From NCBI GenBank assembly GCA_964607485.1, contig CAZSKP010000014.1, forward strand, positions 49,441 through 113,440: a stretch of DNA of 64,000 nt, given 5' to 3'. This document shows positions 33,001 through 39,000 of the stretch, piece after piece. Every line of letters starts with the position of its first letter. Within the stretch, counting starts at the first letter, position 1. The DNA comes from an uncultured bacterium (GTDB lineage: Bacteria > Abyssobacteria > SURF-5). Made by a program: the position numbers.

Positions 33001-36000
33001 GCTTTCCGAATAATTGTCTCGACAACCGTTTCCAGGTCGATCTCACTAGGCAAATCTATCTCGATGTCGGCGTATTTTCTATAGAGAATCAATCGTTCGT
33101 CAAAAAGAGCCCTCAAGCCTTTCCTCTTGAGCCCGACGATTCCTCGTGTGTCCTTGTTTGCGAGCCTTCTCTCAATGCTTCTGAATGACATGTTCAGAAA
33201 AATGATCAGGGAATTTTCCGCCAACAATTTCATCGCTTTTTCAGAGTAAATTACGCTTCCGCCCGGGGAGATTATGCATTTATCCAGCTTCCCCATTTCC
33301 AATATGGCGTTCTCCTCGGTCTCCATGAATTTTTCGTCGCCAAAATCGTCCAGAATTTGTTGCAGCTTCAGCCCGAGGCGCTGCTCAATTATCTCGTCGG
33401 TATCTATGAACACGTATTCCAACCTCCTGGCCAATTCTCGGCCGAGCATGCTTTTCCCCACGCCGGGCATGCCAATCAGGGTCGCGTTCATTCTCTCTGT
33501 TCGGTCCATTTCGCGCGATAATAAAATAGGCAGTGGTCACATGAATGGGCAGGCCCCGCACCTGCTCACGCTCGATGGCTGCGCGTTGGGGCCAACCTCG
33601 AGGTGTTGTCCGCACAAGAGCGTATCAGTGAGTTAGCCGGAAACCGCGCATTGTCGTGGGCTGCGACGGATGGTTACTGCAACACGAGGTCCGCCCGCCC
33701 GATATCTTGCAAATACTGGGGATAGGCGTCGTATAACGGCTTGATCGCTGGCAAGAGCTTCAGGATTTTGGGAATAGGACCCTTGGCTATGATCTTCTTC
33801 TTGGTAAGCGCGACCGGCAAGTTCACCTTTCCGTGCCAGAACTCGTGCGCCGTGTCGCCGCTGAGCGTGAACGTCGCGACGGGCTCGTTCGTGTTGTCGT
33901 TGACGAGAACGCCCATCGGGTTCGTTGTGGCATCGAGGGTGAGGCTCAGCTCGGGATCGCGCCATACAAACTTGAGAATGAGGTTGGCCTTGCTCATGGA
34001 TTCATAGGCGGGCTGCATGACGGGGTCGCCCTCCGCCGCGAGCTTCGAGACCTTCTTGAAGAAGCCTCCCATGATTTCCGCCATTTCGTCCGCGTCCTTG
34101 AAAACGGCCATTTCGTTGCCTCCTTTGTCATCCTGGATTCGAGTCGGTCCTACGCGCGGATCTTCTCACTTGCCACGCACGCCGCCCCCAGTGCGCCAAT
34201 TATCTGAGGGTCGATGCCGTCGGGGAAGCTCTTCAGGTCGAATTTCAGTTTCTTTTGCAGAGCGTCTAATACCCCTCGATTCTTTGCGACGCCGCCCGTG
34301 ACCGCGATGGCTTCCTTCAACCCGACCCTGCCAACCATAGTGCTCACACGATTTGCGAGCGAGATGTGCAGGCCTTTCACGATGCTCGGGAGCGGAACTT
34401 CTTCGTTTATGAGGTTTATCACTTCCGACTCGGCGAAGACGCTGCACATGCTGCTGATGGTCGTCGGGTCTCCCTCCTGGAAATGGAGCTCGGACAGCTC
34501 TTCCAGCTCGATGCCCATGCTGCGCGCCATCATTTCGAGGAAACGTCCCGTGCCCGCGGCGCACTTGTCGTTCATGGCGAAATCGAGCAGGTTGCCCTCG
34601 TCGTCGAGCCGTATCGCCTTGGTGTCCTGGCCTCCGATATCGATAATCGTGCGGACATCGTTCAGGAGCATGTAGGCGCCTTTCCCGTGGCAGGAGATTT
34701 CCGAGACGTTGACATGCGCGAAATCCACTTTTGCACGGCCGTATCCTGTGCCCACGATGTAGGCGACGTCCGCTTCGCCGCATCCGGCCCTTTTGAGCGC
34801 TTCGTGGAAAACCTCCCTGGCGGTCTTCGTGGGATTGGTGGTGCTCGGGCCGGTCACATAGCTCAGGATGTGGCCGTCGTTCAAGATCAGGGCCTTGCTC
34901 GCAGTGGAGCCGATGTCGACGCCCGCCGTTATTGTTGTTGACATTTTCCCCTCTCCTCAAACAGCCGCACTCACGCTCTCTCCTTTTTCATCTCCACTCT
35001 GGGGAGCACGATGTCGTTCACAAAGCGCGAGAATTCTTCCTGAATCGCCTCGACAGGAGTTACCCTCGGGTCGAACATGTCGTATTCGAACACGAGCAGC
35101 GGCACTCCTTCCTCGCGAGACGCTTCCTTGAACAGGCCGAGTCCGCCCCACGCATGTTTGCACGCGACATGGCCGGCGAAAATGCCGCAGTCGCCCTTGA
35201 ACTCGCGACACAACTGGAGGTAATCATCGACATACGCCTCGATGGGCCCTTTGAACTGACGCGACATGGGCATGAGCCTGATCAGCTTCCTGGCCAAACC
35301 CTCCAGCATTGCGTCGGGACTGGAGGTGTCGATGTACCCTTCCGGCGCGTAGTAGCCGAACAGGTCCATCGGAATGCACATCTTCAGTTCGAACTCGAGC
35401 CAGTCGTAAAACGACAGGTCGAACCAGATGGGGTCTTGATACCAGATTCCGCGGATGGCCTCGCCGCCTTCGACCGCCGATTCGCCCCTCTCGATTCTCT
35501 CCCTGCATTCAATCGCAAGCTCCTCGGCTACGTGGCATCCGGCCTCGGAACCCGACGCCACAATGACCAGCCCCGTCATGAGCGACGAAACCTTGCTGGC
35601 CTGCGGGCATGGGACATGTTTCCTGCCTTCGTTCCACTCCCACAGGTGCGTTGACATCCGGTTCGAGAGCTCGCACACCTCAGCCAGCTTGTCCCAGGAG
35701 AACTTGAGGCCCGTGTGTTCCTCGAGATAGGGAATCGCGTTGCGAAGCTGCTTGGCGACATACCTGATTTCCCGCTCGCCGTAAAGGTAGGGGATGTCAA
35801 TCAGGCGAAGCGGCTTGCCGGTCACATGCATGAGGGTCTGTGACGCCGCTATCTGCGAGTCGCACGGCGTGTTGGCGAAGAACAAGCATGTTGGGTCGGG
35901 CATCACTTTTTTCAGGGCGGCGCCGAGCGCACCCTTGTCGATTGAGCATACCTCGGGCGCCAGGCCGTGGGCCTCCGCCTTATCAATATTCTCGATGTTG

Positions 36001-39000
36001 AAATTCAAATCGCCCACGAGCGTGTTGAATCCGGTGACCATCTCGATGGGATAGCTTTGGACGGGCCCGTCGAGCGCACGAATGATTTCGGGGCTGATGC
36101 CGCAGTTGTGCCAGACCATCGGCACGTTGTCGTCCATCGCCTGGAAAACGTCTTCGATAAACTGCTTAAACGTCGAGAAATGCGCCCTCAGCCCTCTGGA
36201 TGCCGGGTCGGCTTCGTAGAGTGCGATCAGGCCTTCGACCCCTTCGTATATGGATTCCCATTCGTCCCAGCGATCTTTTCCCAGAATTGCCATGACCCGA
36301 TACCTCCCTTTCTACTTCCCGATCTTTTCCAGGAACGCCTGGACGCGCGTTTTCACCTGTCCTGCCGCCGTGACCCCATACTCCCTGTCCAGCACCAGGA
36401 TGGGGATATTCTCTTCCTTCAATGTCCATTGCAGATTGTGACCGTCGCTGGCCCACGGGTCGCAGAATTTCATGCGCTGAAAGACGACTCCGTCTGCGCT
36501 GAAATCCTTCACGAGGCCCTTGAGGATTTCCGCTCTCTTGGGAAATTCGCCGACCGTTCTCGCGCACGGCACATGGTAGAAATAGCGGTGAAGGAGATTT
36601 TCCATGATGTCGCCGTCCTCGTTCACCAGTTCTGAGAAATAGCGCGCGCCGAAGCAGACATCTTCCGCGACGACGAGGCCTCCCTGCTCCTCGATGTTGC
36701 GCAAATATGCGGGCTCGTCGAATTCTCCGCCGGTGAGTATCAAGCGCGCCCGGTAGGAGCTCCTTGTCTCTCCGTCGCCAAGTTCCGCGAGGAGCCGTTC
36801 CAGCATCGGGTTGAAATCTTCCTTCGGCATCACGTGTGCGGCGACGGAAACCGTAAGGGCGTCGGCTCCCGTGATGGGCGGATTGGCCTTCTTCCTGATG
36901 TCAGCGAGCCGCAGCAAGAGCCTGCGCGTTTCGTTGTGGAGCTTGACGGCTGCCTTCAAGCTGTCGTCTTCGATCTTGACGGAGAAGTGCTCCTCGATGC
37001 TCGCTGCCAGGTTTGCAATCTCTTCCTTATACCAATCGAAAACGTGTTCCTCAAACGTCCGCGGAATGGACATGAACGCCTTGAACGGGATGTCCACCTT
37101 GTTTTTCCACACGTCGAACGCCCTTCGCACGTGGTCGCATGTGTTCGCCAGAATCACGCCGCCGAGGAACTTCATCTCTCCTTCGAGAGCCAGATTGACG
37201 CTGTGCCTCACGAACGTGCACAGGCGGGCGCTGAGGTACGTGTCGGCGATGGAGGTATCCTTGCTGCCCGCTCCCCGAACGCGATAGGGAAGCATTCCGG
37301 CCGCCGTGATCAGTTCCTCGGGAATGTATGAGCAATAATACCCAACGACCTTTTTGCCGCTGTTGAGCCAGCGGTCGAGGTACTCATTTCGGGGCGAGGA
37401 GATCGCCTCTCGAAATGTGTTCATGATTTCCTGTTCGTTCATGCTGACACCTCTTCCTTCTTTGACCACAATCGTCGCACGATGTTCTGCACGTCGGCAA
37501 GAAAAGGAGCACTTGCCGGTATTTCGAAGATCGTTCTCCCTTCCCTATCGTTTTTTCTCAGCGTTGCGTCCTCCCGGATCATCCCCCAGGAGCCCAAGTT
37601 CATCCTGCTCAGCGTTTCGTTCGGGCAAGAATCCTCTTCGTCCATCCGATTGATGATAGTCCCCACTTGGCAGTTCATTCCCAAATCGCCCGCAACCTCG
37701 ACGAGTTTCTCCGCGGTCTGGACGCTGCGGAGGGAACAGTCCATCAGAAGAACGAGGTAGTCAACGTGTCTCATGACATCGCGGTACACCTGCTCCAGCC
37801 CGGCCTCGGCGTCGATGAGAACGATGTCGTAATTGCCCGCCAGAGTCTCCACGGCATCTCTCAGCAGCCGATTCACAGGGCAGAAACAGCCTTTGAACCG
37901 CGAATGTCCCATCCCCAGGAAGTCAAACGAGGGGGTCTCGATGAGCGATTCCATCAGCAGGTAATTGAATGATGCAGCGATTTCCTCTTTCCGCTTGTTG
38001 GATTTGGCGTCCTGGATAAGCCGATCCCTGACAGTTCCGATGGTTGCCGTCTCGCGGGCGATTCCCAGGAGTTGCTGGAGCCCACCGGCGGGGTCGGCGT
38101 CGATTGCGAGAGCTTTCCTCTTTTCTTCGGAGAACACGCGCACGCAAGCCGCCGTGAAAGCGCTCTTTCCCACGCCTCCTTTGCCGCAGGCGGCAATCAC
38201 CGTCGCACCCGCCACTTACTTCCCTCCCTCACTGAATGTTTCCGCATGCAGGTTGCGTCTCTTCACTTCCTGCGCCACATCCCTCAGCGCGTCGCACTCC
38301 GGCTTATCGGGACACGAGTCGCAGTCGTAAGGGTTTTCGCATTCATAGTCTTTGCCGGTCCTCTTCCTGGCTTTTTCGAGCTGCTCGTCGCGTCGCCTCT
38401 CGTTCACACGCCTGGCTATCCGCATAATTTCCTTCACCCGGTCATGCATGCCCACGACGAAGATCGCTTCAGCGGCTTCGACGACCGGCGCCGAGTCATG
38501 TATCGTTTGAAGAAGATACTCGCCCCAGACCTGCAGCGAGAAGCCGTCCTGCACAGCTTTAGTGCTCACCCTGGCCCATATCTTTTCGTCCATCAACCGT
38601 ACCATGCAGCCGTCCAACTGGCCGGCGGCGGGCAGCGCCATTCTGAGTTTGGACAGATGTTCCGGCTTGATGCCGGCGCCGCCGACAAGCGCGACGTGCG
38701 CGAAGGGATAGCGCCCGCGCTCAAGGTGTCCGAGGTCGGTGCCGACTATGAGGATTCGGCCGTCATCGATAAGAGATGTATCGTTCGTGCTGAGAACGAG
38801 CGCCGCCGAGGGAACCGAAGGGTGTCCTAACTCCAGATGCGTTTCCGACTGAGAAACAATCCGCGACGTGCCTTGAGGTCGCATGAAACGTTCGGGCGCA
38901 GACGACGACCCACTGCTGAAGCTCGATCCACGGGCATGCTCGGGGATTCTTTCGAGCACGCTTCTTATTTCTCCAATGCAGCCGTCCATTGTGTCCTCAC

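Follow-up and report, generated by a model that had tools for sequence, protein, structure and literature searches.

A stand-alone version of the acetyl-CoA synthase (ACS) middle domain, here termed mini-ACS, and its cognate clade of CooC/AcsF-type ATPases are linked to an enzyme set composed of an alpha subunit (three cysteines, [4Fe-4S]), a beta subunit (six cysteines, double cubane) and an activator. As the best explanation for this association, we tentatively regard the mini-ACS as a putative Fe-S protein that binds CoA esters and works together with an ATP-driven BzdNO-like enzyme, the ATPase being the dedicated maturase of the mini-ACS; this reading falls just short of being probable. 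The genes concerned are located in a 64,000-nucleotide stretch of DNA from an uncultured member of the Abyssobacteria, which is referred to as the window. At the place given in the initial annotation, five of them follow each other in the same direction on the minus strand (Table 1).

Table 1. Positions of the mini-ACS gene, its partners and flanking features in the window
Feature	Position	Strand	Remarks
SCP2-like lipid-binding protein	33674..34111	minus	Pfam SCP2 E 0.0015 (under cut-off); beyond the coordinates of the initial annotation
HgdC/BcrAD-type ASKHA ATP-dependent electron activator	34150..34944	minus	Pfam BcrAD_BadFG E 4e-61; TIGR00241 above cut-off
HgdA/BzdO-like alpha subunit	34971..36293	minus	three cluster Cys 116, 144, 378
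HgdB/BzdN-like beta subunit	36312..37469	minus	six Cys 46, 84, 111, 272, 302, 336; likely start Met10
CooC/AcsF-type SIMIBI ATPase	37439..38215	minus	258 aa; Walker A GKGGxGK; C110-x-C112
Mini-ACS gene	38216..38989	minus	257 aa; Pfam CdhC E 4e-10; predicted model and fold searches
Cys motif C217-x5-C223-x2-C226-x5-C232	38294..38341	minus	putative [4Fe-4S] or single-metal site
Beta-hairpin patch M129, R131, W138, R140	38570..38605	minus	W138 = Trp405 equivalent, C. autoethanogenum ACS
GMC-family FAD oxidoreductase	39037..40440	minus	47 bp upstream of mini-ACS gene
MerR-family regulator	40403..41257	minus	first gene of run
Sigma-70-like site, 11/12	41276-41248		consensus match only

The mini-ACS protein and its cysteine tail

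The mini-ACS of the window consists of the ACS middle (A2) domain, a long helix (residues 182-211), a cysteine loop and a final helix. Pfam CdhC covered residues 45-179, and residues 27-206 of the predicted model (pLDDT 88) could be superimposed on ACS residues 319-498 (Z 21.6, 176 residues, rmsd 1.9-2.1) at an identity of only 20-25%. ACS was the sole match in the fold search, the next, unrelated structure reaching Z 4.5, and the middle domain was matched in ACS alone among solved structures. This was in agreement with the initial view of a stand-alone ACS middle-domain protein. The alignment had been described as limited to ACS residues 322-506; the assignment to the middle domain stood, but the family profile aligned to ACS 312-517, beyond the first A-cluster cysteines. 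The A-cluster domain itself, with its four cubane cysteines and Ni-binding residues, is absent from the protein, which stops at residue 257. The NCBIfam ACS models gave scores of 45-58 bits (cut-offs 356-809). Source annotations do often call the protein 'ACS beta subunit', as had been pointed out, and this name can cause false Wood-Ljungdahl calls in metagenomes. Likewise, the module appears to be undescribed as claimed, since no account of it was found in the literature searched. Passages on D. biacutus in PMC4103992 deal with true ACS and not with mini-ACS.

Relatives of the mini-ACS formed 149 clusters (50% identity, E<=1e-30) with lengths of mostly 230-290 aa, and the mean column identity across 126 diverse members was ~24%. 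One carrier is a cultured species, Desulfatibacillum alkenivorans DSM 16219. The genome under study encodes a second mini-ACS on contig C17, as previously indicated, and a separate full-length ACS of 725 aa on another contig (C60). The low identity to ACS and the loss of two of its three domains could suggest a degenerating remnant of an ACS gene. This idea, to which we give next to no credence, was refuted by the uniform length and conservation of the family; in addition, the mini-ACS possesses an N-terminal helix and a tail of its own, it has invariant residues and stable gene partners, and an intact ACS exists elsewhere in the same genome. A single sequence among the 150 matches listed carried a ferredoxin domain of the 2[4Fe-4S] type as a fusion. 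Fused forms of greater length were not detected at E<=1e-10, which is weak evidence; the same search also missed ACS itself.

In the ACS of C. autoethanogenum, Trp405 makes the stacking contact with the adenine of acetyl-CoA (bioRxiv 10.1101/2024.08.05.606187). The register of the equivalent Trp138 was set against the residues given in that study by the G/H/R at -6/-19/-22 present in 11/11 ACS sequences. The patch is strongly conserved in the 126 diverse members (W138 in 123, R140 in 125, R/K131 in 125), whereas the acetyl-transfer residues are mostly lost: an equivalent of His386, which the window protein lacks, was found in 19 members and one of Arg383 in 44. His56, which at first seemed invariant, was discarded as a ligand when its conservation fell to 27/126 in the wide set.

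All four tail cysteines were kept in 129 of 130 near relatives. They had been reported as invariant, but only three of them are (126/126), the first being present in 96 of the diverse members; moreover, the earlier numbering (C223, C229, C232 and C238) belongs to the C17 copy rather than to the window protein. A three-Cys clade of 27 rows was recovered in a quick tree (SH-aLRT 98). The tail is placed at the site of the ACS cluster CxxC, with the CxxC 73-97 residues (most commonly 74, 82 or 85) downstream of the Trp compared to 79 in ACS, and with the same preceding helix. When only the tail was compared, hhalign assigned a probability of 2% to ACS, ACS remained outside the top 15 of 24,582 ORFs, and a PDB search with the tail profile at E<=10 yielded coiled coils and chance matches but no ACS. 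The tail had been called new in the initial annotation; it may or may not derive from the loop of the A-cluster, a descent for which the argument is positional only. Tail confidence in the model was pLDDT 63-78; folded alone (pLDDT 76, pTM 0.36) the tail gave no Foldseek match, and its comparison with solved metal sites returned neither a fold nor a sequence match. The best E-value of the tail region against Cas4/PD-(D/E)XK C-terminal cysteine Pfam profiles was 2.3e-4, which is under cut-off. CX2CX5C-like cluster motifs also occur in EndoIII and NuoG, and judged by its residues the mini-ACS motif would be compatible with zinc as well.

Linkage to the ATPase and to the alpha/beta/activator set

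The ATPase gene begins straight after the mini-ACS stop codon (gap 0), and the best PDB match of its product was CooC (3kje, E 2e-14). The CxC was kept in 42/42 linked copies, and the Walker A motif of the window ATPase is of the deviant, CooC/AcsF-like kind. The ATPase tree, which like the others was a quick tree with midpoint root and was built without L016, L126 and the L127 ATPase, grouped 40 linked ATPases with 4 unlinked ones from carrier genomes (SH-aLRT 97) and kept them separate from the ATPases encoded next to acs genes. Both groups have the motif GRPE-x-x-GCxC in common. Judging from motif and score rather than from a root, the mini-ACS-type ATPase would be nearer AcsF than CooC1.

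Among 69 distinct mini-ACS loci (L126, the same DNA as L011, was excluded), 48 had the ATPase within 2.5 kb and 21 did not, while Hgd-type genes were found within 5 kb in 59 and not in the remaining 10; some loci stop at contig ends. An activator gene was located within 300 bp in 33 loci. These counts support the partnership with the ATPase and Hgd/Bcr genes put forward in the initial annotation, but no CooC-like gene is adjacent to the mini-ACS gene on C17. Across 401 genomes, the mini-ACS was present in 34. With only six candidates scored per genome and a profile built largely from carrier genomes, the corresponding ATPase type (E<=1e-85) was detected in 32 genomes, every one of which belonged to those 34 and none to the other 367. 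Six of these 32 ATPases were unlinked to the mini-ACS and outside the query alignment. The pairing is tighter than the earlier locus counts showed. In 21 complete loci (without L016, L095 and L126), the mini-ACS/ATPase distance correlation was 0.72, the highest of ten pairs, and each of the two tracked the alpha subunit next (mini-ACS 0.55, ATPase 0.62), though such correlations also reflect shared descent. The correlation with the activator was weak (0.19, reached by 34 of 500 shuffles), and a pure electron-donor role is therefore not favoured.

CooC/AcsF ATPases are maturases of CODH and ACS. Yet 13 of 37 carrier genomes had no match to the ACS A-cluster domain, and 12 of these 13 had no CODH match either (one query each, draft genomes). 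In these 12 genomes the ATPase therefore has no known client. A NiFe-hydrogenase family was found in 8 of the 12, which says nothing either way on Ni insertion. Conceivably, the mini-ACS is itself a catalytic 'half A-cluster' subunit, in which the ATPase inserts Ni beside a [4Fe-4S] cluster for acyl transfer, carbonylation or C-S/C-C cleavage of CoA esters with electrons from the activator. The family profile extending through ACS 517, the spacing between Trp and CxxC after the same helix, the GRPE-x-x-GCxC motif shared with copies beside acs genes and the open site in the three-Cys clade all fit this idea. It is nonetheless improbable, as the tail alone bears no significant similarity to ACS, the model shows a helix where the ACS cluster domain continues, the Ni-binding domain is absent and few members retain equivalents of His386 or Arg383. 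Furthermore, the 12 carrier genomes without a CODH match are evidence against CO chemistry.

The alpha and beta genes are two Pfam HGD-D genes. They had been assigned to '2-hydroxyacyl-CoA dehydratase operons', a label that is unsupported because the beta subunit has the double-cubane cysteines of BzdN and DCCP, a signature missing from the solved dehydratase. A passage in PMC11971306 states that the double cubane is abolished in dehydratases. All six cysteines were present in 37/37 linked beta subunits. They were also present in 4/4 unlinked beta subunits of the same genome, on which the idea that the mini-ACS/ATPase pair is specific to double-cubane enzymes was dropped. The alpha subunit of the window is remote from every solved enzyme (E 1e-8) and has Gln147 at the position of BzdO His131; His replaces the third Cys in 5/38 linked alpha subunits. 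Two of the three activators of the genome are encoded at mini-ACS loci, and alpha/beta genes occur at 8 places. The window has one activator gene, many other mini-ACS loci two.

Alternatively, the pair could act in trans as a scaffold for building, repairing or metallating the clusters of the alpha/beta subunits or the activator, the mini-ACS being a carrier outside turnover. Both proteins track the alpha subunit, and the two genes can occur together at a distance from any Hgd genes (loci L011, L122 and L125), in genomes with many alpha/beta sets; the His replacing the third Cys in some alpha subunits also points in this direction. We nevertheless consider a scaffold doubtful: BzdNO made in E. 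coli from a plasmid with BzdNO alone contained ~11 Fe, according to a passage in PMC11971306, the unlinked beta subunits have the same six Cys, and a scaffold gives no reason for keeping the adenine-binding patch.

As for the flanking genes, the SCP2-like gene recurred in 19/69 mini-ACS loci (within 300 bp in 12) and the GMC oxidoreductase gene in 14/69, and a gene for SCP2, GMC oxidoreductase or acyl-CoA dehydrogenase was near the mini-ACS in 35/69. In 6 loci the pair has a LarE-like neighbour, which was rejected as a functional link; the genomes are related, and the arrangement was taken as shared gene order. The nearby SCP2 lipid carriers, together with an adenine patch that outlived the catalytic residues, would suit a carrier or sensor of CoA esters that has no redox role and binds Zn structurally, with the ATPase regulating or recycling it. 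Zn indeed suits the four-Cys loop, but the three-Cys clade would be a poor Zn site, one member is fused to a ferredoxin domain, and no Zn finger is known to need a dedicated CxC ATPase. This makes the non-redox alternative unlikely.

Proposed mechanism and implications

With the mini-ACS as CoA-ester-binding Fe-S partner, the hairpin patch would hold a CoA ester by its adenosine-diphosphate end, and the Cys loop on its long helical arm would carry a [4Fe-4S] cluster, whose fourth site would be open in members of the three-Cys clade. The ATPase dimer may load or complete this site with the help of ATP and the CxC, in the manner of AcsF with ACS. Once loaded, the mini-ACS could present the CoA ester to the activator-alpha-beta enzyme and/or relay low-potential electrons into it. 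The substrate may be a lipophilic acyl-CoA of the long-chain, branched or steroid type, and a reduction would be the more likely reaction, rather than 2-hydroxyacyl dehydration of the classical kind.

The pair is conserved in anaerobic bacteria, including ones seemingly without the CO enzymes that such parts normally serve. Reused and co-inherited, it would give the CooC/AcsF ATPases a third client, and it points to a large set of double-cubane enzymes, so far uncharacterised, in anaerobes that degrade lipids. The mini-ACS also offers a small soluble protein for studying CoA binding and ATP-driven metal loading. There is a slim chance that the mini-ACS, with the AcsF-like ATPase, forms a reduced version of a Ni-[4Fe-4S] centre next to the CoA-binding surface. 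It would then be an ACS-derived organometallic subunit outside CO metabolism, coupled to a double-cubane enzyme for some reductive reaction in the anaerobic degradation of lipids, and would serve as a living model for a simpler form of the A-cluster.

Comparison with known systems

The mini-ACS shares with the middle domain of ACS AcsB/CdhC (PF03598; 1oao, 3git, 7nyp, 9c0s, 9g7i) the fold, the adenine Trp with the next Arg, and a long linker helix followed by CxxC. In contrast to ACS, it has neither the N-terminal nor the Ni-binding domain, its cluster spacing is CxxC-x5-C instead of CxxC-x8-C-x9-C, ACS His386 and Arg383 are mostly lost, and it occurs outside acs operons and in genomes without an ACS match. 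The CX2CX5C triads of Cas4/AddB have the spacing of the three invariant mini-ACS cysteines and a helix afterwards; their matches were weak and sub-cut-off (6 and 8 of 126 members), and the mini-ACS has no nuclease domain. The ATPase resembles the Ni-insertion ATPases CooC1 and AcsF (CooC2; 3kje) in its GKGGxGK, CxC, size and fold family. CooC1 and AcsF serve CODH or ACS, whereas the mini-ACS-type ATPases are a separate clade co-occurring with the mini-ACS.

For the enzyme itself, HadBC/HgdAB dehydratase with its activator (3o3m) is likewise a Pfam HGD-D pair with a three-Cys alpha subunit and one homodimeric-type activator gene, but HadC contains just three of the six Cys seen in the beta subunit, and the window set scored 54 and 168 bits with dehydratase family models (cut-offs 750 and 700). 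Class I benzoyl-CoA reductase of the bzd type (BzdNO, 8s02) and DCCP (6eno) gave the best PDB match of the beta subunit (E 3e-54), which shares all six double-cubane Cys with them. BzdNO also has a three-Cys alpha subunit and an ASKHA activator. It differs in that the window alpha subunit matches BzdO at only E 1e-8 and lacks His131, in that there is one activator gene instead of two subunits, and in that the window set remained below the cut-offs of the bzd-type NCBIfam models (190/454 and 39/449 bits). No bzd system is known to have a mini-ACS/CooC pair.

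Genomic setting of mini-ACS and of its second copy

The gene for mini-ACS, a protein consisting of the middle domain of acetyl-CoA synthase (ACS) and a cysteine tail, lies in a closely packed gene run. From the GMC gene to the SCP2-like gene, successive intergenic spacings are 47 bp, 0 bp, an overlap, 18, 26 and 38 bp, and the run is most likely a single transcription unit. Further downstream (25750-31064) are what we take, from their translations, to be xylose isomerase-, xylulokinase- and beta-xylosidase-like genes, unrelated to the module.

Genes of the mini-ACS run (window positions)
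Feature	Position	Strand
MerR regulator	41257-40403	-
GMC oxidoreductase	40440-39037	-
mini-ACS, 257 aa	38989-38216	-
CooC-type ATPase	38215-37439	-
HgdB-like (beta)	37469-36312	-
HgdA-like (alpha)	36293-34971	-
Activator	34944-34150	-
SCP2-like gene	34111-33674	-

A second mini-ACS copy, on contig C17, ends the gene order beta, activator, alpha, mini-ACS; no ATPase gene adjoins it in the neighbourhood examined, and Abyssobacteria are among its named homologues. This locus (L004) is preceded by an NTPase-like, low-GC-looking gene, and a tRNA-Arg lies directly 3' of mini-ACS with a tRNA-Gly close by (L004:8822-8896 and 10084-10160). Contig C60 of the same genome carries a complete CODH/ACS cluster, apart from which the two ordinary CooC-type genes stand in tandem (C12:96008-97666).

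Fold, CoA site and cysteine tail

The alignment-based model of mini-ACS (pLDDT 88) resembled ACS alone, with Z 21.6 and an rmsd of 2.1 across 176 residues, against Z 4.5 for the third-ranked structure; Foldseek matched it to ACS with E 5e-12. The family is large and uniform, comprising 149 clusters (50% identity) at E<=1e-30; the 716 at E<=0.001 probably take in ACS. Among 126 diverse members, G55, G83, G127, C223, C226 and C232 were kept without exception (126/126), and R140 (125/126), E53 (124/126), W138 (123/126) and M129 (119/126) nearly so; beside this conservation, a product of decay is hardly credible.

In a preprint on acetyl-CoA-bound C. autoethanogenum ACS (bioRxiv 10.1101/2024.08.05.606187), the middle domain makes most ligand contacts, with the adenine stacked on Trp405, and acetyl transfer is proposed to involve Arg383/His386; PMC12289521 likewise places CoA on this domain. 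In 11/11 ACS sequences the Trp aligned to W138 is preceded by Gly (-6), His (-19) and Arg (-22). This spacing fixes the register of W138 against Trp405, and the adenine-stacking Trp is therefore kept in mini-ACS. Equivalents of the acetyl-transfer His and Arg were retained in 19/126 and 44/126 members, respectively. Among 37 carrier genomes, which are drafts, 13 gave no match to the A-cluster domain of ACS, and 12 of the 13 gave no CODH match either. That mini-ACS is a Ni-containing catalytic subunit appears very unlikely.

Four tail cysteines were present in 129/130 near relatives and in 108 of 146 further representatives; 34 had three, mostly in a single clade, and 4 were fragments. The whole-family profile aligns as far as ACS residue 517, and the Trp-to-CxxC distance is similar in both proteins; the tail alone showed no significant similarity to ACS in tail-only comparisons. 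Weak tail matches were seen to the terminal cysteines of Cas4 (6/126 members) and PD-(D/E)XK profiles (8/126), which in those enzymes bind [4Fe-4S], and a single member bears a ferredoxin domain. We infer that the tail holds an Fe-S centre; it may bind Zn instead. A non-redox carrier, as a reading of the whole protein, is quite improbable.

The ATPase as partner and a possible mechanism

The ATPase is the cognate partner of mini-ACS. CxC was present in 42/42 linked ATPases. When 58 CooC-like proteins were placed in a quick tree, one clade (SH-aLRT 97) united 40 linked copies with 4 unlinked ones of carrier genomes, separate from those encoded next to acsD/acsB or elsewhere in acs clusters; the labels AcsF and CooC1 in this tree are presumptive, based on gene position. 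Among 401 genomes from the phylum of the cultured carrier D. alkenivorans, mini-ACS occurred in 34 and its ATPase type in 32, all within those 34; the other two carriers had a weaker or long-branch copy. Where no ATPase adjoined mini-ACS, it was encoded elsewhere in the genome. The distance matrices of mini-ACS and its ATPase correlated at 0.72 (21 complete loci), higher than every other pair. Mini-ACS was also found in 9/11 genomes of the source genome's own phylum and 7/201 of the phylum of a Myxococcales carrier, and representatives were also named Tepidibacter and Dehalococcoidia.

We tentatively favour a CoA-ester-binding Fe-S protein, loaded by the ATPase, that serves the neighbouring enzyme in turnover. 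The hairpin patch would bind the CoA ester, the helical arm would bear the Fe-S centre, the ATPase would load it, and during turnover mini-ACS would present the substrate or relay electrons. A cluster scaffold is unlikely. Regarding the partner within the enzyme, a distance test spoke for a link of mini-ACS with the alpha subunit rather than the activator; gene order points instead to the activator.

The literature searched, mostly at abstract level and with few subscription papers, contained no description of the mini-ACS/ATPase pair. The module is real, and is a variant made of known parts; new here are the co-occurrence at genome level, the mapping of the CoA site, the test for a double cubane and the negative result on the tail's origin.

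Variant loci and the neighbouring enzyme

Across 69 distinct loci, Hgd-type genes lay <=5 kb from mini-ACS in 59, the ATPase <=2.5 kb in 48 and an activator gene <=300 bp in 33. Other neighbours were SCP2 (19), GMC (14) and acyl-CoA dehydrogenase (14) genes. The substrate is probably a lipophilic CoA ester.

A helical-looking protein of 400-500 aa without Pfam match (L106:12186-13469 and 12 other loci) directly precedes the order beta-alpha-activator-activator-mini-ACS-ATPase, almost only where the tail has three cysteines; one or two relatives of 170-220 aa sometimes accompany it, and its atlas matches are unnamed clusters (0.86 or less). Directly 3' of mini-ACS, a 220-aa SCP2-related gene occurs at L084, L085, L089, L090, L120, L159, L161 and L162, in some of them separating it from the ATPase. 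At L078, L079 and L086, in a conserved GMC/MerR/SCP2 locus, mini-ACS is followed by a URO-D-family gene, possibly for a corrinoid methyltransferase. A linalool dehydratase/isomerase-family gene (L082:2036-3793; Pfam Ldi, E 2e-71) shares the run of mini-ACS and ATPase and hints at terpene or alkene metabolism. In relatives of the source genome (L010, L011, L123, L124, L125), the pair is followed by a two-component system and a gene that its motif leads us to presume LarE-like. No Hgd genes lie close to the pair at L011, L122 and L125, where it faces an aldehyde-oxidoreductase-like gene.

Six cysteines of the beta subunit align with BzdN Cys36/73/100/263/293/327, which bind an [8Fe-9S] cluster that dehydratases have lost, according to PMC11971306 (see also PMC7317905). 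The set was complete in 37/37 linked beta subunits, likewise in 4/4 unlinked ones of the source genome. The alpha subunit is only distantly related to BzdO and HadB (E 1.7e-8 each). At L076, L080, L082, L083 and L087 (5/38), His replaces its third cluster Cys; to judge from the sequences, these subunits possibly hold a different active-site cluster. Filing the enzyme as a dehydratase was rejected on its six-Cys beta subunit and the distance of alpha from HadB, and filing it as a benzoyl-CoA reductase on the distance from BzdO and on His131 of BzdO, which the alpha subunit in the window lacks. Among known enzymes, its sequence features suggest that it would work most like BzdNO.
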